Origin: Desulfatiglandales bacterium
GTDB lineage: Bacteria > Desulfobacterota > DSM-4660 > Desulfatiglandales > Desulfatiglandaceae
DNA: 64,000 bases
Direction of reading: 5' to 3'
Assembly: GCA_963662465.1 (NCBI GenBank)
Contig: OY759599.1
Coordinates: forward strand, 352,001-416,000
The position numbers and the translations under genes are program-made. Of this stretch, positions 45,551-64,000 are shown one piece after another. Within the stretch, counting starts at the first letter, position 1. The number at the start of each line of letters is the position of its first letter. The notes below the pieces were generated by a model. It saw only the letters and a program-made list of their open reading frames with translations, ran no database searches and was not told the origin of the DNA.

Positions 45551-46266
45551 AAAAGAAAATTGAACAGTTACTCATTGATTTGAAGTTTAAAGGCATGCTG
45601 AAGGCTCTCGAAGAACAGTTGGCTTCGGCTGAAAAGAACGGTTTTTCCATTCACGAGGTCATCTACAATCTCCTGGCTGAGGAATTACGTTTCCGGCAGG
45701 AGCGCAGCATGATCTATCGGGTCCAGATTGCAAAGCTTCCATGGGAATGGACCCTCAACTCCTTTCCGTTTGATCTTCAGCCGGGAATACAGAAGAGCCG
45801 GATCATGACGTTGTCCGGCCTTGACTTTATCAGCCGAAGAGAAAACATCGTGTTCCATGGAAAAACCGGCGTCGGCAAAACGGGATTGGCCGTGGGGATC
45901 CTTCGTCAAGCCATTATTGCCGGGTACCGGGGGCGTTTTTATAATGTTCAGGATTTGCTGGATCAGCTCTATGCGTCTTTGGCAGATCGGTCCACCCCGA
46001 AACTCCTCAATGCCCTTTGCAGATATGACCTGCTTCTGCTCGATGAACTGGGATACCTGACCCTCAAAAAAGAGCAGATGAACGCCTTTTTTAAACTCAT
46101 GAAAGATCGCTATGAAGCCGGTCGGTCCACAATTATTACGACCAATCTTCAACCTGAACAATGGTATTCGCTGCTTGAACCAAAGGACATGGTCGATGCC
46201 TTGCTGGATCGTCTCAACCATCGCTGCATCAACATTCATATTGATGGTCCTTCCCTCAGAAAATGA
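45547..46266 (+). CDS. istB: IS21 helper ATPase
   Basis: Same protein as 9569-10288. Confidence 0.95.
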   Translation: MKKKIEQLLIDLKFKGMLKALEEQLASAEKNGFSIHEVIYNLLAEELRFRQERSMIYRVQIAKLPWEWTLNSFPFDLQPGIQKSRIMTLSGLDFISRRENIVFHGKTGVGKTGLAVGILRQAIIAGYRGRFYNVQDLLDQLYASLADRSTPKLLNALCRYDLLLLDELGYLTLKKEQMNAFFKLMKDRYEAGRSTIITTNLQPEQWYSLLEPKDMVDALLDRLNHRCINIHIDGPSLRK

Positions 46267-47019
46267 GATGTTCGCCAAAGGGCCGGTTTTGAGGTCTGAA
46301 TATCACCGGTCTGTTTGAATCTCGTTACACGAATATCAGAAATTACCTTGTCTTGGAGCTTGAAATGAGAGGTGGAAAACGGGTAGGCGCCGGCCGAAGA
46401 AAGAAACCGGAACATTTGAGACGTGAACTGCTCACCATTCGTCTCCCCAAATGGATGATTCTACAGCTGAAAAAAAACGGGGAAATTGGATATTTGATTG
46501 AGGACCAATTGGCGAAGGGAGGCCTCCTGAATTTACCGGACGACTATGACATAGACAAATAGTTCCTCAATAAGCATTGCCCTTAACCGAAAAATCTAAT
46601 CCCCTCTTCTCTGCCATCACCATATTGATGGTATCCTCATCACTGATTCTTCAACCAGAACGCTACGTGTCTCACCAGCATTTTTAAAATACCATCTGAT
46701 ATACTCTTTCATGCAGCCTCTAACAAATTTACAAGAAAACCCTTCTAAAAGGAAAAGACCAGTGCGCAATATCTGGTTCCGTTTGGAGTAGCAAAACTGG
46801 TTCCATTTTGGTTAGCGCCCAAGCCCGGTGTTTCAGATGTGAAAAAAACTTCAATGCCATCGACCTTGTTATGGCTGTCAAGGGATTGGGTTTTAAAGAA
46901 AGTGTTGTGTTTTTGAAACAAATACTGGCGATGGACTCAAACCGCAACGGAGATGCCGGTCAGGCGGTGCGCACCCTTGCAGCAGGCATTGGCTTTTCAA
47001 TGCCGGGATTGAGGTAGTT

Positions 47020-47694
47020 ATGCATCAGGAACGATTAAACTACCTTGAAACGATTATTGCGGGCAAGCAACGGAATTTTTATGAACTGGGAAAGGCCCTC
47101 AATGAGATAAAACAGACTCGTTTATATCGGCTGGCCCTGTATGACAATTTTGGCGCCTACGTCAAAGCCCGCTGGGATATGGGCAGATCCCAGGCCTATC
47201 GGGTTATCAATGCCTATCAGGTCGTTAACAATCTGTCCCCAATTGGGGGCAGACTTCCTGTTAATGAGTCACAGGTTCGCCCCCTGGCCAAGTTAACTCC
47301 CCTTGAACAGCGGGCTGCCTGGAAACGCTTCCTGGCAACGGGCGAGGAACTGACGGCATTGAATATCAAAACCTTTGTCTGTTCAGACGACCGTTCTCAT
47401 AAAAACAATTTTGTCAATTTGACGGATCTTATCTCCGATGCGTACATGGATGCGGTGTCAACCATGATAGAGCAGATTCGCATTGCTCAGCATGACCGCT
47501 GGCAGAAGACCTCTCGCCAGGCAGCTCTCCTGTGGAATCAGGTCATAAGTACCCGAGCAAATGTTTTTCAACATCTTTTTGATGTAATCCGCAATATACA
47601 AAGGGTAAACACCATCTTAAAATACCCTAAAATATATGCTTGGGTACTTACAGGAGAAAATTTTGGCAAAGGAGCCGGACAATGGATAACCTAA
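47020..47694 (+). CDS. Hypothetical transposon accessory protein
   Basis: FYELGKALNEIK..RLYR..F..Y...W...AYR..PVNESQVRPL pattern; operonic with neighbours. Confidence 0.65.
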   Translation: MHQERLNYLETIIAGKQRNFYELGKALNEIKQTRLYRLALYDNFGAYVKARWDMGRSQAYRVINAYQVVNNLSPIGGRLPVNESQVRPLAKLTPLEQRAAWKRFLATGEELTALNIKTFVCSDDRSHKNNFVNLTDLISDAYMDAVSTMIEQIRIAQHDRWQKTSRQAALLWNQVISTRANVFQHLFDVIRNIQRVNTILKYPKIYAWVLTGENFGKGAGQWIT

Positions 47695-49205
47695 CATTGG
47701 ATGACCGTTTCCATTTGCTGCTCTACAAAAAACTCATGAACAAGCAGGGAGCTGCCCTGCGGCGGGCAAAAAAGTATTACAAAGATCAGTATCGGAAAAC
47801 CGGCATCATCCCGGGGCCGCTATTGCTTGCAGAGAAAGGCATTATGGAGGGCAGGCGATGCAGTGGCAGGCCTCGGTCGCTGGACGATGAGACCCGCAAG
47901 CGTTTTATTGCCATGGTCAAGGCATCCTGCGACCCATCAAACCCGGCGTTTATTTTTATCACCAGAAAGGCCAGAATCATAAAGAATTACCATCATTGGC
48001 TTCAAGCTGAGTTGAACCGACCCGTCTCTATTGCCGCCCTCCGGCGCTCAGTGAAGCGAGACAATCTAAAACCGTATCTTACTAGACCGGATTTTGATGA
48101 TGATGTGCCCACCAACCATTGTTTTGACCCGGCGCCGGTGTTTGATCTGATCCAGATGGATGGTTGCAAGTTCCATTATTTGAAAATCAGAGATGACAAT
48201 GGATACTGGCAACAACCCCAGGTGATTGAATTGTTTGATACGGGGTCCCGCTATATGTTTGTCCTCGATGTGTTCTTCTCTGAAAGCAGTTTAAATGCGG
48301 TGGAGCTGTTCACGCAGTTTTTGTTGAGTACGCCATTCCCCCAGAAAACCTTTCGTATCCGACCGGATAACGCCAAAGGATTTTTGAACCTCAAGCGGGC
48401 CTTTAACGCCGTGAACCTTGCCCATTCAGTTCCCAAAGGGTTTTATATGGACGCCGATTTCGCTCGAATCCATGCCCCTAAAGATAAAGCACACCTGGAA
48501 TCATCTCATCGAAGCCTGCATCATTTTGAGATCCGGATTATCAAGGCATTCGAAGACCGGATTGTCAAAACTGTCCCTGGTTATATTTTCACATGTGGGA
48601 AAAGGGAACAGATCACAGTAACCCTCCTTGATATCAGCCGCTATGAATTAAAGGCCAGTTCACTGATACAGGACTATTGTCATGAACACAACGCAACAAA
48701 ACATTATTTCAGCGAAAATGGAAAAATCTCAACCTGGGTTCCGGAACAGAAATTAGCGCATGTTTTCCAGACAGAGGAAAATACCCTGACTTTTGCACCC
48801 CAACAGGTAAAACAGTATATGAAGTATGGTCTGCGCAAAACCCCGGCAACGGTATCGACAAAAAAAACAATCCGATGTGATAACCGGATTTACCATGTAA
48901 CCGTTGGTGCGGACGCATTCAGTAATCACAAAAGCACCCCTGTAAAGATATCCCGCTATCATGACAAGCTGTTCATTTTCGAGCCCAAGGATAACGGAAT
49001 TCTTCTGGGGGAGGCCATGCCCATGACCCCACCGGAACACCCTGTAAAATCGCCTGTTATAGACATTGAAAAAGGGGAACTCGAACAGATCATTTCCTTT
49101 TTGGAACATTATGATATGACCGTTGATCGCCCTGCATTGATCGAGACATATAATAAGGGACTGTCATTGGAGAGAAAGGCTATCCAATTGGTTCTGGGGA
49201 AATAG
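47682..49205 (+). CDS. DDE integrase-core (Mu/IS21-like) transposase, C-terminus truncated
   Basis: IQMDG, DTGSR, RPDNAKGF, PKDKAHLE; the end runs into unrelated IS debris. Confidence 0.7.
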   Translation: MDNLTLDDRFHLLLYKKLMNKQGAALRRAKKYYKDQYRKTGIIPGPLLLAEKGIMEGRRCSGRPRSLDDETRKRFIAMVKASCDPSNPAFIFITRKARIIKNYHHWLQAELNRPVSIAALRRSVKRDNLKPYLTRPDFDDDVPTNHCFDPAPVFDLIQMDGCKFHYLKIRDDNGYWQQPQVIELFDTGSRYMFVLDVFFSESSLNAVELFTQFLLSTPFPQKTFRIRPDNAKGFLNLKRAFNAVNLAHSVPKGFYMDADFARIHAPKDKAHLESSHRSLHHFEIRIIKAFEDRIVKTVPGYIFTCGKREQITVTLLDISRYELKASSLIQDYCHEHNATKHYFSENGKISTWVPEQKLAHVFQTEENTLTFAPQQVKQYMKYGLRKTPATVSTKKTIRCDNRIYHVTVGADAFSNHKSTPVKISRYHDKLFIFEPKDNGILLGEAMPMTPPEHPVKSPVIDIEKGELEQIISFLEHYDMTVDRPALIETYNKGLSLERKAIQLVLGK

Positions 49206-49391
49206 AAAGCGCTCATAAATCAATACCGCAAAAACGATTGAAAATCCCCGGTGCGACTTGGCGCCCTTCTTCAATTGATCCTATGCTTGCATTGCGAGTG
49301 TTGAGAGCAGATGACTGGTGGGATGATTCCGGACTCAAAGGAATCAGAAGTTGTTGGCAGCCTAACTCTCCAACAGCCGTGATTTACACCC
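49172..49391 (+). pseudogene. 3' remnant of an ISKra4/ISLre2-type transposase
   Basis: GYPIGSGEIESAHK..QKRLKIPGATW. Confidence 0.7.
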
Positions 49392-49574
49392 AATCCGTTT
49401 ATTCCCGCCTTATTCTCACTCTCGCCCCTTCTGCAGCTTTAAACCCATTCTTTCAGAGGTTCACGATCTCAAGAATGCAATTGATATCATATGGGAAGTT
49501 TTCAAAACGGACAAGAGAGTCCGACGTTTGATTGTATGAAGAATGCTGTAACCAAAACAGGGGGGTGATTTATC

Positions 49575-49869
49575 ATGGATGGGCTGAATGTGAAGCGAAT
49601 TAATAAACAGGGATAAATTTCCATTGACAAGAAATACGCAGGCAAGAAGGTTTAAATCGACCAATATCCCGATGGTACCGTTGTTTTGACGCCCATTGAG
49701 TTTATCAGTGAATTTGAAATCAATCTTCTCAAGTTCCGATCATTTCAGGACCGCCTGAAGGCTTTCGACCGATGGGAAGCAGTTCATGATGCCTCAGAAG
49801 CCAAGCTTGCTGATCTGGAGAGACATTTTGAGGATTGACCTAATCTTTCCCGGTTTTCAAAAAGATTTC
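49575..49869 (+). pseudogene. Decayed two-gene toxin-antitoxin-like module cut at the IR
   Basis: AbrB-like VKRINKQG*ISIDKKYAGKKV*..DGTVVLTP with stops; the next ORF start is truncated at 49869. Confidence 0.4.
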
Positions 49870-50402
49870 GGTTCATCGCGGATTAACGTGAAATTTGGTT
49901 TGACTGGATTTTGGCCCGTGCTGTAGGTGCGAATTCAGTCGTACAGAGCAGATGCCCTTTGTGCGACTAAAGTTGCACCTACAATCGTTCCAAAAGTTAG
50001 GGCTTCACGGCAATCCGCGAAGAGGCAAGATGACCCATAGCGGTTTAACGTGAACCGTGGATTGAAACCCTTCGATGAATTTCACCATATTTTCATCAAA
50101 ATAAATGCTCCTACAAAAAAACCTATTGACTTTTTCATTTTTTCGGAATAGCGAATGATTGAATTGAGTCAGCGCTATGATTTTGCGATTAACGTGAAAC
50201 TTGTTTCTGATGATGGTTTCACGGGGCCTGTAGGTGCGGCTTCAGCCGCACAGCATTGCTTTTTTAGGTTGTTCTTTTTGCGAAGTGTTCCGATTGTGTT
50301 GTACTCCGATTGTAGGTGCGACTTTAGTCGCACATTTCATTACGTTTTGCAATGCTTTCAAAAGGTTTTGGGGTCGGGTGATTTAATGAGGAGGGAAGGG
50401 CG

Positions 50403-51479
50403 GTGAAAAAAGAGATGAATCGGTTTTTAACGATTTGGGCGATTGGTTTGGCCGTGGTTTGCCTGTCTTTTGGAGCCCATGGGCGTGCGGCGGAAAAAGA
50501 CTGTAATGTGTTCATCAGTTGCGGGAATCCCTACGACTGCTGCAACAATGGAACCCAGGAACAGGACGGCAACTGCACCTGGTGGGCGTGGAAGATGATG
50601 TATGACCGGTGGGGGTATCGGGCGCCCACCTGGCACAATGCCGGTCAAGTATGGTTGGATGGCGCGCAACAGGCTGGGTTGCCCACGGGTGATGGAAATT
50701 CTCCCAGAGTCGGGTCCGTTTTTGTCCAATCCGGGCATGTGGGGTGGGTTTTCAAGGTGGACGGGAATACCATCTACACCACTCAAATGAACTGCGGATA
50801 TCCGGACCAGTACACTAGCGAACAGAACGATTACAAAACCTATGACATTACTACGCAAACGTTCCTGGGTTTCATCTATCCGCCGGACGGCTCCGGGCCG
50901 GTGCCGGATACGGGTGTGACAAAATGTTATGACACGGCCGGAAACGTCATCATCTGTCCGGATTCCGGTGAGGACTATTACGGCCAGGACGGCAATTACA
51001 CCATCAACCCGCCGTCCTATACCAAGCTGGATTCGCAGGGTTATGTTCTATCGGTTGCCGCCACATCCTGGGCCATGGTTCTAGACAATGTCACCGGGCT
51101 GTACTGGGAGGCGAAACAGAACAAGGACGGTGCCTCACATTACGATAATCCCCATGATGCCGACAATACCTATAACTGGTACGACGCGCAGAATATCTTC
51201 ATCAAGGCCCTAAACGACGCCAATTTCGGCGGCCATTGCGACTGGCGTTTGCCCACCAACAAGGAGCTGGCTTTTCTGGTGGATTACAGCATCGCGTATC
51301 CGGGGCCGACCATCAACATGACCTATTTTGCGAATACGGTGTCGTCCTATTACTGGTCGTCTACTACCTATGCCAATACTCCGGACGACGCCTGGCTCGT
51401 CGATTTCTACGATGGCTACCGCCTCTGGTACTGTAAGTCCTACAGCGATTACGTTCGGGCGGTTCGCGGCGGACAGTGA
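50403..51479 (+). CDS. DGR target 1: signal peptide, CHAP domain and Lcl/DUF1566 C-type-lectin-fold domain
   Basis: GNCTWWA...GHVGWV (CHAP Cys/His); DNVTGLYWE, DWRLPTNKEL, YWSSTT, VRAVRGGQ. Confidence 0.9.
   Translation: MKKEMNRFLTIWAIGLAVVCLSFGAHGRAAEKDCNVFISCGNPYDCCNNGTQEQDGNCTWWAWKMMYDRWGYRAPTWHNAGQVWLDGAQQAGLPTGDGNSPRVGSVFVQSGHVGWVFKVDGNTIYTTQMNCGYPDQYTSEQNDYKTYDITTQTFLGFIYPPDGSGPVPDTGVTKCYDTAGNVIICPDSGEDYYGQDGNYTINPPSYTKLDSQGYVLSVAATSWAMVLDNVTGLYWEAKQNKDGASHYDNPHDADNTYNWYDAQNIFIKALNDANFGGHCDWRLPTNKELAFLVDYSIAYPGPTINMTYFANTVSSYYWSSTTYANTPDDAWLVDFYDGYRLWYCKSYSDYVRAVRGGQ
51338..51478 (+). repeat. DGR variable repeat VR1
   Basis: 141-nt ungapped match to TR; 22 mismatches, 21 opposite TR adenines. 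Confidence 0.97.
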
Positions 51480-51526
51480 TCGATTATTCGGTAATTTGAT
51501 GCTTTGTTCATTTGGAGCTGAAAATC

Positions 51527-51925
51527 TTGGCAAGGTATGAACATCTACCCCTATACAAAGCGGCCATGGACATGGGAGTCTATCTCGAAGGTATGGTCCA
51601 TAACTTCAGCCGGTATCACAAATATACCACCGGTCAGGAACTGCGTAGCCTGGCCCGCGAAATCATCAAGCTTATCATCTGGGCCAATTCGGTCCGGGAT
51701 AGGAGCGACATCCTGTCGGAACTGGTGATCCAGTGCGAAATGCTCAAGACCATGCTCTTTTTTGCCAAGGAAACCAAGGCGATTCAGAGCTTCAAGGCAT
51801 TTTAGCACGCCTCCGGTCTGGCGGTGTTGCTTTGCAGACAGAGCGAGGGCTGGCTTAAAAGCAGTCGAAAGGGCCCGAATCGCCCACCCCCGGATGGGAA
51901 AGGGGGGCCGGCGAGTGCGCCATGA
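51527..51925 (+). pseudogene. avd: Avd-like four-helix-bundle accessory gene with in-frame TAG at 51803-51805
   Basis: MARYEHLPLYK...FSRYHKYTTGQELR; past the stop the frame continues HASGLAVLLCRQSEGWLK to TGA at 51925. Confidence 0.85.
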
Positions 51926-52243
51926 ACACTGTGCGCCTCCCCCGCCTGGCGGTTCATGCAGGCATATTCATGCAGGGCGTGGAGGGATCCGCGCCCGGTG
52001 GAAGGAAATTCATTGCGGCCTGCACAGCTGTGGGTGCGACTGTAGGTGCGACTTCAGTCGCACAGCAACGTCGTGCGCCAATACCGGGTATGGCTTGTGC
52101 GAATAAATTCGCACCTACAGTGCAACCGTCCCGACGGCGGATGTTTTGACCCCGGGATGGGTTGTGCGGCTGAAGCCGCACCTACAGCACAGTGCCACAG
52201 CACAGCGCTATTGTGGGTTTCCTTCATCAAGTGGGGAGGTGAT

Positions 52244-52384
52244 GGTGTCGTCCAATTACTGGTCGTCTACTACCAATGCCAATAATCCGAACAACGCCTG
52301 GAACGTCAATTTCAACAATGGCAACGACAACTGGAACAATAAGTCCAACAACAATTACGTTCGGGCGGTTCGCGGCGGAAAGTG
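52244..52384 (+). ncRNA. DGR template repeat (TR)
   Basis: 17 AAY codons in the target frame; lies between avd and the RT core; matches VR1 and VR2. Confidence 0.97.
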
Positions 52385-54009
52385 TTCCCCTGCTGTCCTT
52401 CCGGTCAATTTATGATGCGTATCTGGATTGCCGAAGGAGAAAGCGCAATACCATCAACGCGCTCAGGTTTGAGGCCGATTTGTTGACCAACCTCTTTGAC
52501 CTGGCGCTGGACCTGCAAAAGGGACGGTATCAGCCCTCCCGCTCTGTCTGCTTTGTCACACGGTCCCCGAAGCTCCGCGAGGTATTCGCCGCGGACTTCA
52601 GGGACCGGATCGTTCATCATCTGGTGGTGCGGGAACTGGAGAAGATATGGGAACCGCGCTTTATTTATGATTCTTATGCGTCCAGAAAAGGGAAAGGCAT
52701 CCACTCGGCCGTGGACCGGCTTCAGGGATTCATGCGGAAGGTGACCCGCAACGGCAAGCGGGCCGGCTTTTTTCTGCAACTGGACATTCGGTCTTTCTTC
52801 ATGAGTATAGACAAACGCATTTTGTTTTCCCTGTTTGACCGGGACCGGAAAACATCGGATGTGCTGCGGTGGGTTTTGTCGGTACTCATTTTTCATGATC
52901 CCACGACGAATTATTGTTTCAAGGGAAACGGGAGATTGCTGGACGCCATTCCGCCCCATAAAACTCTTTTCAAGACCGGCCTGTACAAAGGGCTCCCTAT
53001 CGGAAATCTGACGAGCCAGTTTTTCGCCAACGTCTATCTCAATGAACTGGATCAGTTTGTCAAACATGAGCTGAAGTGCCGGTTCTATTTGAGGTATGTG
53101 GATGATTTTATCCTATTGGCGGAGAGTGAAGATCAACTGTTGAAATGGCGTCAGGCGCTGAGCGGGTTTCTGGAAGACCACCTGGCGCTACGTCTGAGAG
53201 GCGGTGACCGGGTGCGCCGGGTTTCTGACGGTGCGGATTTTCTGGGGTATGTGACCCGCCCCGGGTACCGTCTGGTGCGAAAACGCGTGGTGAACAATTT
53301 TAAATATGTGCTGGCGCGAACGCGGGACAAAATGGTGGTGGAGATGGCGGGTGACGCAGCGGCCGTCGGTGCGGCAGGACGTGCGGTTGCCGGTGCGACT
53401 GTAGGTGCGACTTCAGTCGCACAACCGGAAAAGAAAATCACCCGCGTCACCGGCGCCCCCGCAGGTGCGAATTCATTCGCACAGCCCACCAGGGTTGCGG
53501 TCCCGGGCATCCGCACACTCACGATCCGTCCCCGAATGGTCCTGCATTTGCGGCAGGTCCTGGCCTCTTACCTGGGCCATTTTCAGCATGCGGACAGCCG
53601 GTATCTGGTTGAGAGTATTTTCACAAAACACACCTGGCTCAGGCAGTTGTTTGTGTTTGACCGGGGTAAACTGAAGATGAAAGCCCTTCCCGTTCAAACC
53701 TTTCCATGCATGCGGGAGCAGGTGTGGTTTTTTAGAAGGCATTATCCCGGATTCATACTTTTGTTCCGGGTGGGCCGCTATGTGGAGCTTTACGGAAAAG
53801 ATGCTCGGATTTTGCGGGAATATGCCCATTTGAAGCTAGTGAAACAGCATCGGGGCCTGCGGGATTCGGTGGGGTTTCCGGTGAGCATGACCCGGGGCAT
53901 ACGCCGAAAGCTTTTAATGAGGGGTCACCGAACGGCGCTGGTGGCCCAGGGCGTCACCGGCGGGCGGGTGAGACGCCGGTATGTGGCAGAGCTGGCGTTT
54001 GCGACCTGA
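52276..54009 (+). CDS. DGR reverse transcriptase with in-frame REP insertion and C-terminal MutS-N-like extension (start uncertain, possibly near 52390)
   Basis: PKLREVFAADFRDRIVHH, GLPIGNLTSQFFANVYL, RYVDDF, GADFLGY; tail ILLFRVGRYVELYGKDA. Confidence 0.95.
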   Translation: MPIIRTTPGTSISTMATTTGTISPTTITFGRFAAESVPLLSFRSIYDAYLDCRRRKRNTINALRFEADLLTNLFDLALDLQKGRYQPSRSVCFVTRSPKLREVFAADFRDRIVHHLVVRELEKIWEPRFIYDSYASRKGKGIHSAVDRLQGFMRKVTRNGKRAGFFLQLDIRSFFMSIDKRILFSLFDRDRKTSDVLRWVLSVLIFHDPTTNYCFKGNGRLLDAIPPHKTLFKTGLYKGLPIGNLTSQFFANVYLNELDQFVKHELKCRFYLRYVDDFILLAESEDQLLKWRQALSGFLEDHLALRLRGGDRVRRVSDGADFLGYVTRPGYRLVRKRVVNNFKYVLARTRDKMVVEMAGDAAAVGAAGRAVAGATVGATSVAQPEKKITRVTGAPAGANSFAQPTRVAVPGIRTLTIRPRMVLHLRQVLASYLGHFQHADSRYLVESIFTKHTWLRQLFVFDRGKLKMKALPVQTFPCMREQVWFFRRHYPGFILLFRVGRYVELYGKDARILREYAHLKLVKQHRGLRDSVGFPVSMTRGIRRKLLMRGHRTALVAQGVTGGRVRRRYVAELAFAT

Positions 54010-54316
54010 TCGAGTATAGGTGCGGCTTGTAGGTGCGACTTCAGTCGCACAACAAATCCCTCGTTGTGCGACTAAAGTCGCACCTACAGTGGTGGTCTAG
54101 ATGGAGGTGATGGGAAAAATTGAAATGGGATTTACGGGTTGGGTTTTGATGACCAGTGGTCTCAAGAGATTGTGTTGTTGCGGGGTGGTATGGCGGATTG
54201 CTGTGCGACTGAAGTCGCACCTACAGCAGGACAAGGCTGGAGGGAATGAGGATGGAGTGTTGTGCGACTAAAGTCGCACCTACAGTTAGGAGCGTCCAAA
54301 TGCGGGGGATGCATCG

Positions 54317-54796
54317 ATGAAGGGAAGGGGTGCTCCATTATATCCGCCAGGCTATGGGGCGTTGCGGGCAGGCCGGTGGAGCGAATCGGGGCGGTGTTAC
54401 ATGATTACCACGGTTACCGCCGACCGTGCGCCGGTTTTTCGCGATCTGTTTGCCGGTCGTTGCGTTGTTCGGGAGATGATGCGGTTGCACGGTGATGGAG
54501 TGGTGGCATCTCTGGCCTGGGTGATCATGCCTGATCACTTTCACTGGCTGGCGGTGCCGGCGAGTCCATGGAGCCTTTCAAAAGTCATTCAATTGCTGAA
54601 GGGGAGATCCGCGAGACGTGTGAATGAATATCTGGGTCGTACGGGCAGCCTCTGGCAGCCGGCGTTTTATGATTACGCGGTTCGGAAGGACGAAGATCTT
54701 CGCAAAATGGCCCGATATATCGTGGGTAATCCGATCAGAGCGGGTTTTGTGAAGCGGGTTGAGGAATACCCCCTGTGGGATGCGGTGTGGTTGTGA
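54317..54796 (+). CDS. rayT: REP-associated tyrosine transposase (RAYT)
   Basis: YMITTVT, WVIMPDHFHWL (HUH), WQPAFYD, RYIVGNPIRAG; flanked on both sides by REPs. Confidence 0.92.
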   Translation: MKGRGAPLYPPGYGALRAGRWSESGRCYMITTVTADRAPVFRDLFAGRCVVREMMRLHGDGVVASLAWVIMPDHFHWLAVPASPWSLSKVIQLLKGRSARRVNEYLGRTGSLWQPAFYDYAVRKDEDLRKMARYIVGNPIRAGFVKRVEEYPLWDAVWL

Positions 54797-55513
54797 TCGG
54801 TGTGTATGGCTCGATCCGATGTGTGGCCGGTTCACGATTGTAGGTGCGGCTTGTAGGTGCGACTTCAGTCGCACAACAAATCCTCACTGTGGGACTGAAG
54901 TCGCACTTACAGGAGGACAAGGCCGGAGGGAATGAGGATGGGGTGTTGTGCGACTAAATTTTCACCTACAGTCGTATTCCAAATGAAGGTGACGGGAAAG
55001 ATTGAAATGGGATTTACGGGTTGGGTTCTGATGGTCGGTGGTCTCAAGAGATCGTGTCGTTGCGGGGTGGTAAGGACGATTGTAGGTGCGGCTTCAGCCG
55101 CACATTTGGGCTGCGGATGATGGATGTACGGCGGGTGTTGTGCAACTAAATTTGCACCTACAGTGTTGTGCGACTAAAGTCGCACCTACAGTCGTATTCC
55201 AAATGAAGGTGACGGCAATGGGGGGTTGTGGGCAGGCGGATTATTGTGCGACTAAAGTCGCACCTACAGCACGGAAGCATCTCTTTTGTTGCGAAAAGCA
55301 TGGGCAAAGGATGTGACTATCAGAAGCACCGGTCCATGGCAAAGAGGGGTCGGAAGAGCGTCATTTCATTTTAGCGACGGGCATAAATATTTGGCGGCCG
55401 CATTGAAGGGCGCGGGGAAAATGGATCAGGAAGAGGCAGGCGTGATACGGATGCCTCTTTTGTCGGTACGGTTCCATTTACCCGTGTCTGTGCTGCCGTA
55501 GAAGGAGGAAGGC

Positions 55514-58500
55514 ATGAAAGCAATGCGATGGGCAACAGCCGTCATGGCCCTGTGGGTCGTAATCACGATCACGCAAACGGCGTACGCGGCCTTTGTGGAC
55601 AATGGCAACGGCACGGTGTCCGATACGCGAAGCGGCCTCATGTGGCAGCAGGATACGGCCAGGGATGCTGGGGGAAACTATGATACCATGACCTGGAAGG
55701 AGGCCTTGGCCCACTGTGCCAATCTGGAGCTGCCGCCAGGCGGCTATACCGACTGGCGCCTGCCCACCATCAAGGAGATTCGATCCCTGGTGGATTGCAG
55801 TCAGTATAGTCCCGCCATTAATCGCAATGCCTTTCCCGATACGGTGTCGTCCAATTACTGGTCGTCTACTACCTATGCCAGTAGTCCGAACTACGCCTGG
55901 AGCGTCTATTTCTACAGTGGCGGCGACTACTGGGGCAATAAGTCCTACTACGGTTGCGTTCGGGCGGTTCGCGGCGGACAGTCTGGGGCATTCGGTTCTT
56001 TGGATCATTTGGTCATTTCGGTGCCGGCGGGCGCCCAGTCGGTTGGGGATGATTTTACCATCACCGTCACCGCCGAGGATGCGGCAGGGCTGCAGGTGCT
56101 GGATTTTGCGGGTAGCGTGAACCTTTCGGCCGAGGGGAATACCGTTGACCCCACCGCAGTGACCCTCTCCGGCGGGCATGGGAGCGCGTCCATTCGCATC
56201 TTGAACGTCGGCAAAACCCGGCTCAACTGCGACGGTTATGGGGCCTACGGCAACAGCCGGTATTTTGACGTGGCCGGGGAGAATCCCTGCATCGGGTCCA
56301 TCGAGGGGAGCGTGGTGGACTGCCGGGGCACCCGCGTGAGCCAGGCCACGGTGCGGGCCCGTGACGTGGAAGGGGACGTGATGGCGAGCACCACCACGGA
56401 CGGTAACGGAAGGTTTACGCTGGCAGACTTGACCTGCGGGCCGTATGATATCGAGGTTGAAAAATCCGGCAAAACCGCCACCGGCATCTGGAAGACGGTG
56501 GGCGGACATTACTGCACCACGGCCTTCGGGATCGAGCTGCCTTTGAACTGCGGAACTGAACAAGCGGTGGTGGTATTGGTCCCCGGCATCATGGGGTCCA
56601 GCGAATCGTCATGGGGGGGGGTTCCCAGCTTGCCGGCCGGTGCACCGGCACGCGCTTCGGATTTGCACATTCATGCCGAGGGGACAACCGGTTTTAAAAA
56701 ACTCAAAGAAGAACTGGAAGCGGCAAATTTTACCGTGGTGGAGTGTCCCTGGGACTGGCGGCTCAATTGTGAGCGGGCCTACCGGGAATACCTGAAGGAC
56801 AAAATAGACGAAGCCCTGGCGGATTCAGGCGCCGACAAGGTGTATGTGGTGGCCCACAGCATGGGGGGGCTTATGGTACGGGCCTACATTCAGAACAAGG
56901 AGAATTATCGGAACGACATCGCCAAAGTGGCCTTTGTGGGCACCCCGCATCAGGGGTCCTGCAATCCCTATTACATCTGGGAGGGGGGCGATCCCCTGGC
57001 GGTCGACGATATGGTCGGTCCGGCACTGGACTTTTATACGCGGACCACCGAGAAATTGTGGGGGAATTACAAGAGAGGCTGGAACACTGAAAACCACGAT
57101 GAGATCCGTTCGTTTATCAGAAGCGACGTGCAGTCCCTGCTGCAACTGATGTATGCGGAAAAATTCCTGACGGATATGCGTTCTTACTGGGCCGTGGAAA
57201 CCCCCGGCAATACCAACGACTGGCTGGACGACTTAAACGAAGGCGATGGGAATTACAACAAGCCGTACGATGTCATGAGCAAGGACGGTTCAAGCGGCAA
57301 CAAGGTGGAGGCCCGGTGCTTTGTGGGAGATTCGGCTGCTTCCACCATTCGGTGGGTCAAGATGGCCCGCACGAGAGGCAGTTCCGGGGCTACCGATGAC
57401 CGGTATGAGGACGGTATTCCACGAAATGAACGGCCTCAGAAAGATAACGTTTTATGGGGAAGCGGCGACAATACGGTTCCCTATGACAGCGCCGTTTATC
57501 CTTACACGAAGGGCTGGGCCCAATTGTGCGCGAAAAAATCCCAAAAAAAACACAGTGAACTGGTGAAGGATTTTGCGACGGACATCGTGCTTTTTTTGGA
57601 CCCCGATGCAGTGGTTTCCTCAAATGCCGCCACAAGGGATGACCCGACTCCGCCCGAACTGTCGGTTTCCATCACCGGCGGGATGCGCGTCCAGATCATA
57701 GATCCCGAGAACCGCAAAACCGGCGCCGACCCGGCCACGGGCCTGCCGGTGCAAAATATCCCCGATTCTATGTGCGCCTTTGATGTGGGAGGCGGCGGCG
57801 CGGCGGTGCAAAGCCCCGCGGCCGGGGCCTACCGGATCACTTATTTTGGCCAGGCGGACCGGGATTTCCAGATCTCGCTAGACTACCAGGATGACACCCT
57901 GACGGAGACCTACAGCTTTCAGGGGTTTCGGCCGGCAGACGCACAGACCTTTACCGTGAGTCTCAACCCCGCAGCCTCTCCCCGTCTCACCATCACCCCG
58001 TCCTGCAAGGCTCCCACCAATCTGGAGGCCAACCCCTACACGTCCGGCGAAACCCCGAAAACCCGCCTTTCCTGGTCCGCAACGGACGAAGCCGGCCTTT
58101 CCGGCTACAATGTCTATGGGGTGGCCCAACTGTCTCCCTATTTCTCCAAAGTGGCCACCGTGGCATCGAATGTCACCACTTATGATACATCAGACACCTG
58201 GAGTTCCGATGCCGCCACCACTGTCATGACCTATGCGGTGACGGCGGTGAAAACCGACGGCACGGAAAGCTTTTTTTCCAATACGGCCCAGAACGATGAC
58301 CGGGACCATGACGGCGTGACCGACGCACGGGAAGCAACAGACGGCACCAACCCGGACAACCCGGATTCGGACGCGGATGGCCTGAATGACGGGAAAGAAT
58401 CGGCATACGGTACCAACCCCCTGGTGAAGGACACGGACGGGGATACCTGGAATGACGGCGATGAAGTATCCGCCGGCACCGATCTCCTGGATCCTTATTC

Positions 58501-58789
58501 CATACCCCGAAGCGTGGGGTATGTGGACCCGGCCGGTGGCTGCAACGGCAACACCCCGTGCTACACAACCATACAGGCGGCCGTGGAAGGCGCCAAAAAC
58601 GGGGGCGTTGTTGAGATTAAGCAGGGAACCTATAGCGAAGAAGTGACGCTCGGGGCTGACAAGCAGGTGATGCTTCAGGGGAATTGGAACGATTCATTTA
58701 ACACCCAGAGCGGCATAACGACGCTGACGCACGCACCCAAAGCGCCCCTGGGGCGATTGACGCTGCGGGATCTGCTGGTGAAACCGTGA
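55514..58789 (+). CDS. DGR target 2: signal peptide, N-terminal Lcl/DUF1566 domain, Ig-like domains, alpha/beta hydrolase (lipase/LCAT-like), FN3-like domain and Asp-rich Ca-binding repeats
   Basis: FVDNGNGTVSD..GLMWQQ, DWRLPTIKE, YWSSTT; VPGIMGS, AHSMGG, GTPHQGS, GDNTVP; DxDxDG repeats. Confidence 0.9.
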   Translation: MKAMRWATAVMALWVVITITQTAYAAFVDNGNGTVSDTRSGLMWQQDTARDAGGNYDTMTWKEALAHCANLELPPGGYTDWRLPTIKEIRSLVDCSQYSPAINRNAFPDTVSSNYWSSTTYASSPNYAWSVYFYSGGDYWGNKSYYGCVRAVRGGQSGAFGSLDHLVISVPAGAQSVGDDFTITVTAEDAAGLQVLDFAGSVNLSAEGNTVDPTAVTLSGGHGSASIRILNVGKTRLNCDGYGAYGNSRYFDVAGENPCIGSIEGSVVDCRGTRVSQATVRARDVEGDVMASTTTDGNGRFTLADLTCGPYDIEVEKSGKTATGIWKTVGGHYCTTAFGIELPLNCGTEQAVVVLVPGIMGSSESSWGGVPSLPAGAPARASDLHIHAEGTTGFKKLKEELEAANFTVVECPWDWRLNCERAYREYLKDKIDEALADSGADKVYVVAHSMGGLMVRAYIQNKENYRNDIAKVAFVGTPHQGSCNPYYIWEGGDPLAVDDMVGPALDFYTRTTEKLWGNYKRGWNTENHDEIRSFIRSDVQSLLQLMYAEKFLTDMRSYWAVETPGNTNDWLDDLNEGDGNYNKPYDVMSKDGSSGNKVEARCFVGDSAASTIRWVKMARTRGSSGATDDRYEDGIPRNERPQKDNVLWGSGDNTVPYDSAVYPYTKGWAQLCAKKSQKKHSELVKDFATDIVLFLDPDAVVSSNAATRDDPTPPELSVSITGGMRVQIIDPENRKTGADPATGLPVQNIPDSMCAFDVGGGGAAVQSPAAGAYRITYFGQADRDFQISLDYQDDTLTETYSFQGFRPADAQTFTVSLNPAASPRLTITPSCKAPTNLEANPYTSGETPKTRLSWSATDEAGLSGYNVYGVAQLSPYFSKVATVASNVTTYDTSDTWSSDAATTVMTYAVTAVKTDGTESFFSNTAQNDDRDHDGVTDAREATDGTNPDNPDSDADGLNDGKESAYGTNPLVKDTDGDTWNDGDEVSAGTDLLDPYSIPRSVGYVDPAGGCNGNTPCYTTIQAAVEGAKNGGVVEIKQGTYSEEVTLGADKQVMLQGNWNDSFNTQSGITTLTHAPKAPLGRLTLRDLLVKP
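55843..55982 (+). repeat. DGR variable repeat VR2 (codons 111-156 of 1091)
   Basis: 140-nt ungapped match to TR; 19 mismatches, all opposite TR adenines. Confidence 0.97.
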
Positions 58790-59111
58790 GGGGCACATGG
58801 AGACGGGAGCTGGTTGCGGATGTAGGTGCGTCTTCAGCCGCACAGCTTGTGCGACTAAAGTCGCACCTACAGCCCGGGCTGAAACATATTCAAAGCGCGG
58901 TTTCACGTTAATCCGCGATGAACCGTTTCATGGAGCGGGCGTATCGGGCAGCCTGACCCGGAGAAGCTTCAAAGGTTAATTGATCCACATACTCCTTTTT
59001 CACCTCCCCCATGAGCCAGGTCTTGTCGGTCTGCCTGGGGCTCAGATGGTGAAATGGTCTTGACTCCTCATGCGAACAGGACTCTGTTTATCCGCATGTT
59101 TCGGGTCCTGC

Positions 59112-59741
59112 TCAGAGGATGCTGCCAAGAGATTTCACCCATTTCTCGAAGTCCTTTTTGACATGGTTCCAGTCCACCGGCCTGATCATTTTCACTTCAG
59201 GTTCCCCGTCCGCATCCGCAAAATACACCAGGCTCCTGATCACATGCCCTATGTCCCGATTTTGATATTTCTCCATGTACAGCCGCAGACAATCATCAAG
59301 GGAACAACCATGGGTCATGAGATGGTGCAGATCAAAAAAATCCTTGCGGGAGCCGCGGGAGGCTATGGCTGACAATTTCATGCAGGCAATGTCCTCCATG
59401 GAGGCCATTCGAATTGCCGTATCAGGTATGGGTACCGTGTTTCGAAGCATGGGATAGTCATAGCCGATGAAGCTGTTTTGAACTCCTTCAATGGTCAGAT
59501 AAACCGTCTCAATACTGACGGATTCCACCACATAGTCCATTTGCAATGCCTTCATCAGGCGGAATAGACCCTCCGGTTCACCAAGCTTCCGGATAAACCA
59601 GTCAAAATCAATAGAGCGCCGGTGACCCAGTTGAAGTGCCAGGGCGGTACCGCCGGCAAGGTAATACGCTGTGCCGGCGAGAACCTGCGCCAGAGAAGCG
59701 AGGACCCGCTTTTGTGCATCGCTCAATATTTCAATGTGCAT
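59112..59741 (-). CDS. AbiEii/AbiGii-family nucleotidyltransferase toxin
   Basis: YLAGGTALALQLGHRRSIDFDW; MKLSAIASRG..KDFFDL. Confidence 0.9.
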   Translation of the reverse strand: MHIEILSDAQKRVLASLAQVLAGTAYYLAGGTALALQLGHRRSIDFDWFIRKLGEPEGLFRLMKALQMDYVVESVSIETVYLTIEGVQNSFIGYDYPMLRNTVPIPDTAIRMASMEDIACMKLSAIASRGSRKDFFDLHHLMTHGCSLDDCLRLYMEKYQNRDIGHVIRSLVYFADADGEPEVKMIRPVDWNHVKKDFEKWVKSLGSIL

Positions 59742-60093
59742 ACCTGCCGCTCCAGACAGAATATTTTCCCCTTGATTCCCGTACCCAGTCAGTTCTTTTT
59801 TCCTTAGCTATCCCAGTGACAAGGGACCAGTAATTGAGTTCGCGGGGAGGGAGTATAAGCCTTCCCCTCTTTTTCAGAAAGGAGGCCAGTTGCTTTTTGG
59901 AGTAGGTTTTTAGAAGCCAGCGCATGGCCTCCCAGTTTCCCCTTTCCATGATTCTGCTCATGACAAAATCACCATGTCTCACAATGTGGATGGTTTCCGG
60001 TTCGAGTTCCCAGAAAAGCTCAAAAAGAGATTCCGGGATACGCGTACTGTCCGCTAAATTCTCTTCGGTTTTTCCCATAACTACCCGTTCCAT
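59731..60093 (-). CDS. Putative cognate antitoxin (DUF6922-like)
   Basis: LFWE......H..FVMSRIMERGNWE...WL...Y; overlaps the toxin start. Confidence 0.75.
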   Translation of the reverse strand: MERVVMGKTEENLADSTRIPESLFELFWELEPETIHIVRHGDFVMSRIMERGNWEAMRWLLKTYSKKQLASFLKKRGRLILPPRELNYWSLVTGIAKEKRTDWVRESRGKYSVWSGRYAH

Positions 60094-60340
60094 ACTCCCG
60101 CCTCTCTACTCCCTGCTCCAGACTACACGCCTCGATCATCGAATCCACTCAATACTGCCGGGGAAACGGCGGCGCGTTAAGGGTGAGAGAGGTTGTGGCG
60201 CTGCATTCACAATTGGTGTTCGGGCCGAATATCTTGACATTTCCGGCTATTTCCCGGGTCTCCCACGTGATGGTTTCCGTCTCTCCACATAGCGAAACCC
60301 AATTTTCCACAGAGAAGAAAACCAACGAAAAAAGTGGGAC

Positions 60341-61369
60341 TCAAATCAATCCATTTGTACCGGAAGGCACGCACGTTCCCCGAACGCGGCGCAGCATCGC
60401 TTCAAAGGCCTGCATATCATTACACCTGCATGCCTGCCGGAAAAGGGACTTCAGAGCGAACAGAGAATCCATCCGCTCAATCTCCTCCGCAACCCCACCC
60501 GGCACAAAGCCGAATTTCTCAAGCACCAGATCCAAAAGCATCTCCCGTGCATTTTCCACACTTCCCAAACTCTTGCCTTCCTGGATGCCCAGACTCTTGC
60601 CTCTATCCAAGCCTTCCTGGATGCCCAGACTTTTACCTTCCTGGATGCCCAGACTCTTGCCTTCCTCAATCCCTTTTTCTCTTGCAATTTGTACAATATC
60701 CAGCATTTTTAGCTCCTCCCACAGCGCAAGCAGACGTTTCTTGTCAATCATCTTGTTGGATAGAACCAGTGTGGCTGCCGTCAGTTGGGGGGATATCCTG
60801 CCGCCCCGGACCAGTTCCACCTCAAAGCGGATCACCTCTTCCACAAAACGGGCACGGTCATCCCCCTTTGCCTTGCCGTACAATGGCAACACCACCAGTT
60901 CCAGCCACTGCCTGAATGTCCCAGCGGCCACCTCCGCACGGATTTCCTCAAGCCGTTTTTTACCGTCCTTTCGGCTGAAATCAAGTACCACTGGGCGATA
61001 CGTCCCGCTGGTTGTTTCGAGACTGCGGGCATTTGGGTCCACTTTTCCGGAGGCCAGGATCACATCCGTCATCCCAGGTCCCCATTTCTTCGCCCCCAAA
61101 AAATAATAGGCCGCAAACCGGTATAGGTCAGAGCGATTCAAATCCCGTTGTTCCTCCATATGAAACAGCGCGCCCGTCGTATCTCGTACCATCACATCCA
61201 CCCGACCTGCTTGCACGCGAATGTCCACCGGCTTAAATCCAAACACGTCTTCCACCGGGGCTGTTTTAAGCCCGATGGCGTCCAGGGTTTCCCCTTTCAG
61301 TGCCTCGGCCATCCACTTCACGGTGAAATCGTAATTGTGCAGATAATCGGTTCCATTCTTGCCTTCCAA
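60341..61369 (-). CDS. Rpn-like PD-(D/E)xK protein with GIQEGKSL repeats
   Basis: RVDVMV...FHMEEQ..RF; tandem EG repeats; C-terminal LLDLVLEKFG.VP. Confidence 0.75.
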   Translation of the reverse strand: MEGKNGTDYLHNYDFTVKWMAEALKGETLDAIGLKTAPVEDVFGFKPVDIRVQAGRVDVMVRDTTGALFHMEEQRDLNRSDLYRFAAYYFLGAKKWGPGMTDVILASGKVDPNARSLETTSGTYRPVVLDFSRKDGKKRLEEIRAEVAAGTFRQWLELVVLPLYGKAKGDDRARFVEEVIRFEVELVRGGRISPQLTAATLVLSNKMIDKKRLLALWEELKMLDIVQIAREKGIEEGKSLGIQEGKSLGIQEGLDRGKSLGIQEGKSLGSVENAREMLLDLVLEKFGFVPGGVAEEIERMDSLFALKSLFRQACRCNDMQAFEAMLRRVRGTCVPSGTNGLI

Positions 61370-61701
61370 TGGATATCCACCTCCGGAATTCAGTTTCTTT
61401 TTACACCCCCAACGGTCAGGCTCCTACGGGCTTCAATGTCAACATTCTCCATTCGCTACTCAGGCAGTTTTAAGCGTTATCAGGCACTGTGGGCATCCTC
61501 ATTTTCTTGAACACGATGAACAGGATTTCTTAGATGGACAGGATTAAGAGACGGCGTTCGGACAAATTCCTTCCCCACCTTACACCATTTTGTCCGCATT
61601 TTATAGGCCAATGGCAATCCTGTCCATCATTATAATTTTTAACAGCATGATCGTTTCAAAGAAAGGGCTTCCATTCGAAATAAAAATCCCTAATGATGTG
61701 A

Positions 61702-63707
61702 CGCATAAGTCTAAATGTTGTGGGGTTTACTCTAACATATTGAAATTATTTCATCTGTTAAACGGTTCCGAATCAATATCCTAATCAAAGCGCATTTCGT
61801 GAGGCCAAACATTTTTTCCTGAATTCGCCTTAGCGGAAAAAAGTTAGGGACTTTTTTTGATAAGTGTGCATAATCATAGTGCAACAGTCTATGTTAAATT
61901 AGAGAGGTTGCACATGATTAATAATATTAAGAGAGCTTTGACAATGTTGGACAAAGCTCAAAACAGACTTGCAAGACAATGTTATTACGATCCAAAACAG
62001 TATCCTGAGATTTTCTTTGAAATTGAGAAATGCATTAATGCCATCAGATCATGGATCAATGAAAGGGAGATGTTTCAATCATTGCAATATTTTTATGTAA
62101 CATTGTCTGCTCTTATTGATGAACTTGGTAGGTTAATAAGTCAATTATGGGATATTTGTAAGCCAATAAAAGGGAAAAAAAGCATTCCAAAAACACAACG
62201 GGATCGACAGAAAATTAGAATCTTTTATTCAATTCGTTCAATGATAAGTAATATTACTAAAAAATTGAATAATGTAAAAAGTCGTGATAGTACAATAAGT
62301 ATTGCATTTGAGATAGGGATGTTAAAATCTTTTGATAAATCCATAATCGAAAATGTAAAAAAGAAAATGGAAGACCTTGTTTCTAAACGAGGAAATCAAA
62401 CATATATCTTTCCTTATAATAACACCGAAAGCTATCATGCTCTCGTAAAAGATAGTAAGAAGTTTCGCATTGAAGTATTAGATAAACTCGATAAATATGA
62501 TCACCACACAGGCCATAATTCAACATGTTCTGGACCTAAAGAATATATTTTATCTGGTTTCCGCGGGAATCCTCGAAAAACAATAATGAATGGAGGAGAA
62601 CAACAGACATTCCCAATCCGCATGATACAATGCCGGAAGTGCAAACAAAAGTTCTCTCTTGTTCCCAGCTTTCTCCCAAGGGAAAAGAATTTTGGTATAG
62701 AGATTATTGGGCACGTATTTCGGAATATGTACCGTTTTAATGCGAGCATTCAAGGAGCCATCGAAAGCCTTAAAATTATTGGCAAAAAAAGTGTCAAAAG
62801 CAAACAAACCATCTTGAACTGGAATCGATGGGCAGGAACACTTCATCCTGCAACAATACTAACAAGAGCAGGAGTGAAAGGCTCAGGATATCTACAGGAA
62901 GATGAGGGCTTTGAAAAAGAACCAAATTTAAGAACTTATTCTGTAGTTATGGTCGATCCTGAAAATTTATTAGTATGGCACTCCGATTATGTTGATCATG
63001 TTGATGAAGAAAACCTGTGCGGTTCATTTGAGGATTTTTTGCAAAAAATCGACTTCAAAATCCTTGGTGTAACAAAAGATAAGTGGAAAGCCTCAACCAA
63101 TGCTATCAAGACCGTATTCCATAACATTTGGGTCGGATATTGCCATCGTCATTGTTTGAAAAACTTCTACGATGCACTATCAAAATATCAAAAAGAATCA
63201 AAATGTACCGACCAAGAAGTGGACAAGTTTTATAAAAAATTTAAGAAAGTTTTGAAAACATCCACATCTAAAGTTAACTTGGAAGTAAAGATTAAGGCAT
63301 TAGATGACGATGCATTTTCTCATCCATTACTAAAAAAGAGGGTAGTAGAATTAAAAGAAAATGCCACTCATTATACCTCTCATAAAAATAGAAATGGGAT
63401 AAAACAAACAACCTCCATTGTTGACAATTATTTAAAAGGAATCAAACGTAAACTAAAACAAATTGAGAGTTTTCGAGATAAGAAATGGGCAAGTCTTTTC
63501 TTTCGAGCACATGCGACTATCAGGAATTTTGTCCCATTTTTACCTGGCGCAAAAAATGCTCATAAAAGTCCCTTTGAATTAGCCAACGGCCAAACATTTG
63601 ACTTACCTTGGATTCAAGTTATGAATGTTCATAATGCATTCTTGTTTACCGAAAACGCCTTTTAATTTTGATGGGTTATACAACCCCACAACATTTAGAC
63701 TTATGCG
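61702..63707 (+). mobile_element. Insertion sequence, family unassigned
   Basis: Perfect 26-bp IR CGCATAAGTCTAAATGTTGTGGGGTT; 8-bp TSD TGATGTGA. Confidence 0.92.
61857..63665 (+). CDS. Putative DDE-type transposase
   Basis: Sole ORF between the IRs; CRKC, QEDEG, VTKDK, CHRH, TTSIVDNY. Confidence 0.8.
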   Translation: MISVHNHSATVYVKLERLHMINNIKRALTMLDKAQNRLARQCYYDPKQYPEIFFEIEKCINAIRSWINEREMFQSLQYFYVTLSALIDELGRLISQLWDICKPIKGKKSIPKTQRDRQKIRIFYSIRSMISNITKKLNNVKSRDSTISIAFEIGMLKSFDKSIIENVKKKMEDLVSKRGNQTYIFPYNNTESYHALVKDSKKFRIEVLDKLDKYDHHTGHNSTCSGPKEYILSGFRGNPRKTIMNGGEQQTFPIRMIQCRKCKQKFSLVPSFLPREKNFGIEIIGHVFRNMYRFNASIQGAIESLKIIGKKSVKSKQTILNWNRWAGTLHPATILTRAGVKGSGYLQEDEGFEKEPNLRTYSVVMVDPENLLVWHSDYVDHVDEENLCGSFEDFLQKIDFKILGVTKDKWKASTNAIKTVFHNIWVGYCHRHCLKNFYDALSKYQKESKCTDQEVDKFYKKFKKVLKTSTSKVNLEVKIKALDDDAFSHPLLKKRVVELKENATHYTSHKNRNGIKQTTSIVDNYLKGIKRKLKQIESFRDKKWASLFFRAHATIRNFVPFLPGAKNAHKSPFELANGQTFDLPWIQVMNVHNAFLFTENAF

Positions 63708-64000
63708 TGATGTGACGCTACAGGCAATGAGAGAGGCGAAGGAATTGGACGGCCATTTTGTCACTGTGGATGATTTCAGCAAATAGCCTGGCTATGAAGT
63801 TATTCAGAACCAAACCTCAATACCCGTGGATGAATGACGTTCATCCTTATGGCTGATCTGTATTTCACCATGAAGGGCATGAAGACCATGAAGAAGTTCA
63901 CTTTTGGAACTTAATAAGGAAAAGATAAAATCTGATTAAATGATGTTAATTTGAATATATTTATGAGTTTTGAAAATCCGGTTCACTTTTTTCACCCAGC

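Follow-up and report, generated by a model that had tools for sequence, protein, structure and literature searches.

Why does a transposase-related gene sit in the middle of a cassette that diversifies its own target genes, and does it serve that cassette? The question arises in a 64,000-nucleotide stretch of a Desulfatiglandales bacterium genome (G000:C1:352001-416000, hereafter the window; G000 is an 8.16-Mb single-contig genome). Here a diversity-generating retroelement (DGR) holds a REP-associated tyrosine transposase (RAYT) gene together with repetitive extragenic palindromes (REPs). On the + strand, the cassette runs target 1, avd, template repeat (TR), reverse transcriptase (RT), RAYT and target 2. 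We favor, with a probability of roughly 0.65, the reading that a REPtron (a RAYT with its cognate REPs) settled in the DGR of one genus, and that the gene and the repeats are tolerated passengers rather than mutagenesis machinery. The REPs are most likely passengers because these repeats occur genome-wide and because relatives of the cassette exist without them. For comparison, we used 209 genomes of the class, 401 genomes forming an even sample of the phylum, and 80 metagenome RT loci.

RAYT, REPs and an ISL3-derived element

The RAYT gene (54317-54796, + strand) lies between RT and target 2, where a reading of the sequence alone had put it, and encodes a TnpA-REP protein of 159 aa. The protein matched NF047646 at 138.2 bits (cut-off 80) and Protein Data Bank entry 4ER8 with an E value of 1.6e-9, and the HUH motif and the catalytic Tyr are present in the alignment. 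GTAG-tagged hairpin repeats flank the gene, four upstream and seven downstream; clustering of REPs around the RAYT gene is the usual REPtron pattern in the accessible part of PMC8266576. The closest paralogues share 74% aa identity and none is near-identical, a domesticated pattern with no recent self-duplication, and the available text of PMC5581495 describes group 3 RAYTs as frequently present in several old copies. The nearest named relatives are mostly from Pseudomonas (45-55% identity), and a search of 72,556 plasmid records returned one distant match. Among viral contigs, we found no RAYT relatives and one REP match, which had no DGR part with it.

Counting 24-mers with five or fewer mismatches as REP matches, we found 22 copies in the window, all within 49922-58871. 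The sequence-only reading had described RAYT and its REPs as interleaved with the DGR, confined to it and absent from the rest of the window. The interleaving and the absence elsewhere in the window were borne out, but the confinement was not: G000 contains 133 copies, and they are not restricted to DGRs. [quoted passage not shown] REP doublets folded much better than shuffled sequences (z -5.7 to -10.5). Two clusters, neither assigned a strand, adjoin RAYT: four copies at 54011-54290, beginning a few bases past the RT stop, and seven copies at 54835-55271, between RAYT and target 2. The latter and the upstream cluster have REP-plus-linker blocks of 86-138 nt in common, in different order. The sequence-only reading had REP clusters delimit each DGR module; the cluster between avd and TR instead lies inside a conserved leader, and a doublet inside the RT gene had been overlooked.

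Copies of the 155-bp MITE have a median identity of 99.4%, and 29 of the 39 (for example L247, G000:C1:756536-756690) have a perfect 8-bp duplication; the MITE has expanded recently. Its 24-bp ends are those of a 1743-bp element present in three copies, with 8-bp duplications at all three, whose protein is an ISL3 transposase (NF033550, 358 bits). The MITE thus combines the terminal repeats of an intact insertion sequence (IS) with target duplication. Because the MITE shares its ends with the ISL3 element, most genomic REPs were likely spread by a DDE transposase: the ISL3 enzyme would have distributed the REP doublet genome-wide by moving the MITE, rather than RAYT doing so. A literature search on ISL3 MITEs carrying REPs returned nothing on point. 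Other MITE sizes, ~245 and 443 bp, carry the same ends.

The outer REP doublets of the cassette also belong to ISL3-type ends. At 49870-50026 (+ strand) lies an old, diverged MITE copy with a 24-bp terminal repeat, a REP doublet and a degenerate far end, its flanks matching at 6/8 bases. This is followed at 50180-50334 (+ strand) by a degenerate ISL3/MITE end and two REPs (50229 and 50311). On the other side, at 58821-58924 (- strand), a REP doublet adjoins one MITE/ISL3 end whose perfect 24-bp terminal repeat faces inward. Elsewhere in the genome, at L004 (G000:C1:5089571-5092583), four same-strand REPs lie ~1 kb apart beside two long RAYT-like genes; each REP forms the end of a similar upstream repeat, at least ~70 bp long, and is followed by a different gene, an arrangement like a cassette array.

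Distribution of the RAYT-DGR link

G000 holds three RAYTs of this clade. The second, at 2.784 Mb, is intact (74% identity) and is followed by a truncated Lcl target. The third, at 3.606 Mb, is broken and lies upstream of a second DGR, in which a DDE element disrupts TR and RT. This second DGR (L001, G000:C1:3597233-3606900) has two adenine-specific variable repeats (VRs), the DDE element being at its TR/RT junction, and is flanked by Rpn-like genes with REP doublets. Across the class sample, the RT occurred in 9 genomes, the RAYT in 5 and the exact REP pattern in 14; both RT and RAYT occurred only in G000 and in G130, a genome of the same genus whose assembly is 80% complete. The two genes are adjacent in G130, where the order is RAYT, target 1, avd, TR, RT and target 2, and the stretch from RT to target 2 is free of REPs. 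The RAYT-target 1 junction of G130 is 87% identical to that of the 2.78-Mb locus over 211 nt, and the 3.6-Mb junction is similar by eye. Since these junctions are homologous, the link within the genus may represent only one or two independent events.

Outside the genus, the link was not recovered. A maximum-likelihood (ML) tree of 37 selected rows out of 108 pairs the window RT with that of G130 and places the pair among the RTs of G107, L110, G379, G259 and G242; both RAYT and this REP were absent from all five sister RT loci in the 2.9-19.9 kb of DNA at each (L105, the same sequence as the G379 locus, was counted once). What the sequence-only reading had named as evidence against itself was therefore largely found: the REP occurs across the genome, and outside the genus neither RAYT nor REPs accompany the closest RT homologues in the DNA available. 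It had also proposed checking for RAYTs within 5 kb of such RTs across genomes. The phylum sample yielded 18 RT matches in 15 other genomes, and 1/18 DGR RTs had an NF047646 (Y1/RAYT-family) match at 5 kb or less, itself below the cut-off, against 0.31 expected (P = 0.26). One of the 80 metagenome RT loci had a weak Y1-like gene ~5 kb away. From the other direction, none of 80 RAYT-relative loci (80 of 119 kept; 45-55% identity, mostly Pseudomonas) had an RT, Avd or Lcl match, and the nearest outside RAYT (G086, 67%), which has the same REPs, lies in 19.9 kb of DNA free of DGR parts. A general RAYT-DGR coupling is thus unsupported: it is absent from the sister loci and the RAYT-relative loci, and the phylum sample shows no enrichment. 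The RAYT-DGR link is real but lineage-specific.

Several observations weigh against RAYT and REPs being passengers in one genus. All four clade RAYTs in the genus (4/4) are co-oriented with an Lcl_C target and lie 0.75 kb or less upstream of it, against a background in which an Lcl domain is at most 1.5 kb away for only 1.2% of G000. Purifying selection acts on RAYT, with dN/dS of 0.10-0.28 in 5/6 pairs and the sixth pair saturated, as is expected for any REPtron. Unrelated REP-like hairpins lie at DGR junctions in other lineages, at 5/282 ends of DGR-part genes versus 1/376 other ends (P = 0.089); this comparison of 94 dereplicated loci was post hoc and not significant, and at 250 nt the counts were 2/285 and 1/381. 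In G151, all four matches of its own REP pattern fall on the DGR contig. Flanks of at least 3 kb and 2.5 kb were present at only 15/80 metagenome RT loci, and many comparison contigs are short. Finally, G130 VR2 matches its own TR at only 2/4 of the non-A sites diagnostic between the two TRs; in favor of passengers, all three G000 VRs agree with theirs at 4/4.

The DGR cassette and other roles for RAYT and REPs

All DGR genes are on the + strand. Target 1 (50403-51479) joins CHAP to a C-terminal Lcl_C and contains VR1 (51338-51477). TR occupies 52243-52382. RT, with a C-terminal MutS_I-like domain, spans 52385-54009, a start that is approximate because the open reading frame called from 52276 reads through TR. 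Target 2 (55514-58789) consists of an N-terminal Lcl_C, an alpha/beta hydrolase and TSP3 repeats, with VR2 at 55843-55982. Compared with TR, VR1 is changed at 21/44 A and 1/96 non-A positions, VR2 at 19/44 and 0/96, and a third, remote VR at 592 kb at 23/44 and 2/96, respectively; all three TR/VR pairs thus differ at TR adenines, as expected of a DGR. The RT matched RVT_1, contains YVDD and is placed in the tree with RTs flanked by avd and TR. The near-zero drift at non-A positions would imply recent mutagenic retrohoming.

The bAvd-like avd gene (51512-51925) is interrupted at codon 98 by a premature amber stop (51803-51805), where 5/5 relatives have Gln; the frame runs on to ~51925, and the conserved GWLK helix is lost. 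We found no intact cis Avd in the window, and its cassette is likely impaired now through this stop. Pyrrolysine read-through was rejected, as no PylS scored over the cut-off and no amber tRNA was found. The second DGR of G000 has an avd 45% identical to the window's with an open frame, which might act in trans. Lesions occur in all four RAYT-linked cassettes (4/4), those of G130 being deletions in RT and in target 1. Among the sister cassettes, RT frames were open in 5/5 and avd frames in the 4/4 seen.

Within the cassette, REPs lie in gene junctions and at two sites where they are likely harmless: a leader hairpin tip and, with the frame kept, the linker of the RT. The conserved avd-TR leader (51924-52245, + strand) has a long-range helix closing three hairpins. 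This closing helix covaries strongly and is paired in 175/175 cells when 25 distinct leaders are compared, versus a mean of 138 and a maximum of 150 under permutation and 33-66% in shifted registers, with anchors picked after the sequences were viewed and leaders that are related to one another. Three REPs (52041, 52096 and 52163) are predicted to lengthen the third hairpin while the closing helix stays intact. The window and G130 carry this three-REP insert at one common site, for which the avd-TR spacers of G107, G259 and G242 (3/3 compared) represent the empty site. The agreement of the three G000 VRs with the window's TR at the diagnostic sites, where G130 VR2 splits 2 and 2, weakly fits retrohoming having continued after this shared insertion. 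In L133 and L108, unrelated palindromes extend the tip of another hairpin. The leader stretch of the window had no Rfam match, window positions 45000-64000 gave 0 matches at gathering score, and a search of three loci gave one weak miRNA-family match, far below the cut-off. In the RT gene, a REP doublet (53396-53486, no strand assigned) lies in frame in the RT-MutS_I linker, which counts 81 residues in the window, 34 in G259 and 56 in G107 when read from translations; the extra part contains the REP doublet, with the frame kept. The positions of the REPs suggest filtering by selection.

A settled REPtron could have reached this state as follows. A Pseudomonas-like RAYT with its REPs likely arrived in the ancestor of the genus and stayed as a passenger. 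RAYT would have nicked and copied REPs locally, a step with in vitro precedent for TnpA-REP, and selection for DGR function would have purged damaging inserts while the DGR worked. The RAYT-target neighborhood was likely duplicated and recombined with other DGR cores.

The main alternative gives RAYT an active part in that recombination: it would nick at REPs and join RAYT-target units to different avd-TR-RT cores, renewing the target repertoire. We consider this conceivable but unlikely. In the window, RAYT is located between RT and target 2, whereas in G130 and at two G000 loci it precedes target 1, and it accompanies two RT lineages (56% identity) that are separated in the ML tree. The G130 RAYT shares 83% identity with the 2.78-Mb copy and 70% with that of the window, and the G130 stretch from avd through TR to the RT start is nearer the window's. 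Divergence at fourfold sites between the window and G130 rises from 44/134 (target 1 end, avd and RT start) to 90/162 (RT end and target 2 without its VR; P = 1e-4), and the interval of this step holds the in-frame REP doublet. However, the interval spans ~170 codons, because the G130 RT has a deletion, and the junction of that deletion is not at a REP. Target 1 is chimeric too, with no REP where CHAP joins Lcl_C, and an approximately unbiased (AU) test did not reject a single clade for the three RTs (P = 0.092). Ordinary recombination among the Lcl/VR paralogues of G000 (40 domains in 20 loci) would also yield mosaics, and either G000 or G130 could be the mosaic genome. Thus, module mosaicism is seen, but it is not tied to REP breakpoints.

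The sequence-only reading had proposed that REP/RAYT activity assembles or swaps DGR modules. The recurrent link within the genus and the mosaic cassettes agree with this proposal, but the sister RTs without RAYT or REPs do not. The wider version, in which a domesticated RAYT serves as cassette shuffler here, travelling with an Lcl_C target by REP-directed nicking, and REP/RAYT systems are drawn to DGR loci across lineages, is likewise doubtful. If shuffling were true, it would be a long-sought host function for RAYTs and a route to new targets for DGRs. No joint skipping RAYT appeared among 15 of 17 joints shown in contigs of three sequencing runs, an uninformative result given that rare variants are lost in contigs. 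None of the sequencing runs listed as carrying the sequence was an RNA run.

It is improbable that the REP clusters were co-opted as RNA elements, terminators or stabilizers, that tune transcripts of avd-TR-RT and of the targets and for whose upkeep RAYT is retained. The leader, the 3' end of RT and the stretch after target 2 do have strong hairpins, and REP-like clusters occur at the RT 3' end or target ends of the unrelated cassettes L113, L232, L245, L190, L193 and L166. However, the enrichment of such clusters at gene ends is not significant and depends on the size of the interval scored, the sister cassettes have a compact layout without REPs, and G130 has none at its RT-target 2 junction. 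L190 (G151:C92) is a different DGR with one REP doublet between target and avd, and its targets are presumably NACHT-like/FGE-type.

There is still less chance that the whole 9-kb cassette is a composite element mobilized by ISL3 and bounded by terminal inverted repeats. Separated by 9055 bp, the perfect 24-bp ISL3/MITE ends (24/24 each) of 49870 and 58924 do point inward, and G000 has three intact ISL3 copies. We nevertheless rejected a whole-cassette ISL3 transposon, as the target duplication is missing: the 8 bp around the two ends differ at 7/8 positions. Moreover, the left end at 49870 is part of a separate, self-contained old MITE, G000 has no second copy of the cassette, and the G130 contig has no such end.

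Nicks made by RAYT, or REP hairpins, are very unlikely to assist in the priming of cDNA at VRs or in its integration there, the latter a suggestion of the sequence-only reading, given that no REP lies closer than 560 bp to any VR (564 bp from VR1; 575 or 2839 bp from VR2), that the remote VR is equally diversified although it lies 152 kb from a MITE and 181 kb from any free REP, and that sister DGRs lack RAYT. In the accessible part of PMC3240598, a hairpin just downstream of the VR is needed in the model DGR, lying within 24 bp of the VR in the Bordetella target. Folding of the DNA that follows VR1, VR2 and the remote VR gave z values of 0.19, 0.37 and 0.74, respectively, with no such hairpin predicted; in favor of a helper role, another signal could therefore stand in. 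Reverse transcription in a model DGR is cis-primed by its own DGR RNA, according to the portion available of 10.1101/2023.10.23.563531. The remote VR could have been diversified before moving to its present site. Its diversification 181 kb from any free REP makes REPs unlikely to be needed for retrohoming.

Further features of the cassette and genome were noted. The remote DGR target (L003, G000:C1:591520-592131) has an adenine-specific VR followed by avd-like sequence, and more Lcl and avd remnants lie at 487 kb and 1171 kb of G000. A T-rich motif with a period of ~9 nt comes after all five VRs compared (sites at window 51478-51515 and 55983-56020, G000:C1:592130-592170 and L185), even within the target 2 coding sequence, and is absent after TR; it may be a target-recognition signal of this clade. 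In G408 (L234, L238 and L239), one genome holds four DGR RT copies, three of which match only from about residue 81-84 of the query, a pattern that suggests repeated 5' truncation. The neighborhood of the window cassette is rich in mobile DNA, with an IS21-type element, an AbiEii/DUF6922 pair, an Rpn-like gene (labeled by eye) and other likely transposases (window 43287-49205, 59112-60093 and 60341-63665).

Comparison with known systems

As the sequence-only reading had stated, no RAYT-DGR coupling has been described in the literature that we searched, mostly papers available without subscription. In 10.1101/2021.01.26.428298, RAYTs are mentioned solely in a list of domains that are now and then found close to RTs, whatever the RT class.

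The DGR resembles the CLec-type chromosomal DGRs of Wu et al. (PMC5758913) in its adenine-specific TR/VR pairs, avd, RT-MutS_I tail, two targets in the cassette, internal or N-terminal VR, and remote target; RT-MutS_I tails and N-terminal VRs are already described there. As far as the accessible sections of that paper go, our DGR differs in the REP inserts in leader and RT, the RAYT in the cassette and the premature stop in avd. A passenger REPtron would show how tolerant a DGR is of insertion: a hairpin tip of the conserved, covarying leader upstream of TR accommodates ~200 nt, and a REP doublet fits in frame into the RT-MutS_I linker. Such insertion-tolerant sites are useful for understanding and engineering DGR RNA.

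Two published cases come closest to the association itself. In cyanobacteria, IS200/IS605-family transposases lie near nine DGR variable proteins and were proposed to disperse DGR parts, according to the available part of PMC7517822. That case shares with ours a Y1/HUH-family transposase adjoining DGR targets; the difference here is a RAYT with cognate REPs, a comparison made with the paper apart from its Tables S4-S5, which could include RAYTs. In picocyanobacteria, the link between tnpA-REP and procA (10.1101/2020.03.09.984088) is likewise a lineage-specific, position-conserved association of a RAYT with a diversifying gene family, with causation not shown there.

The RAYT and its REPs conform to a REPtron, putatively of group 3, Pseudomonas type (PMC8266576, PMC5581495; PDB 4ER8), in the NF047646 score above the cut-off, the HUH and Tyr motifs, the short, near-perfect GTAG-tagged palindromes with doublets on both sides, and the several old paralogues with no near-identical copy; the assignment to group 3 follows from 45-55% identity to proteins that come mostly from Pseudomonas. 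Unlike a typical REPtron, this one lies inside a DGR, has most of its genomic REPs in an ISL3 MITE and has REPs in frame in a neighboring gene. The MITE, for its part, is like other ISL3-family MITEs in that its 24-bp terminal repeats are those of an intact ISL3, its target duplications measure 8 bp and its expansion is recent, but it carries a REP doublet, making it a REPIN-like unit probably spread by a DDE transposase. A REP doublet moved by an unrelated ISL3 transposase would blur the distinction between REPINs and MITEs drawn in the accessible part of 10.1101/2021.07.10.451892.

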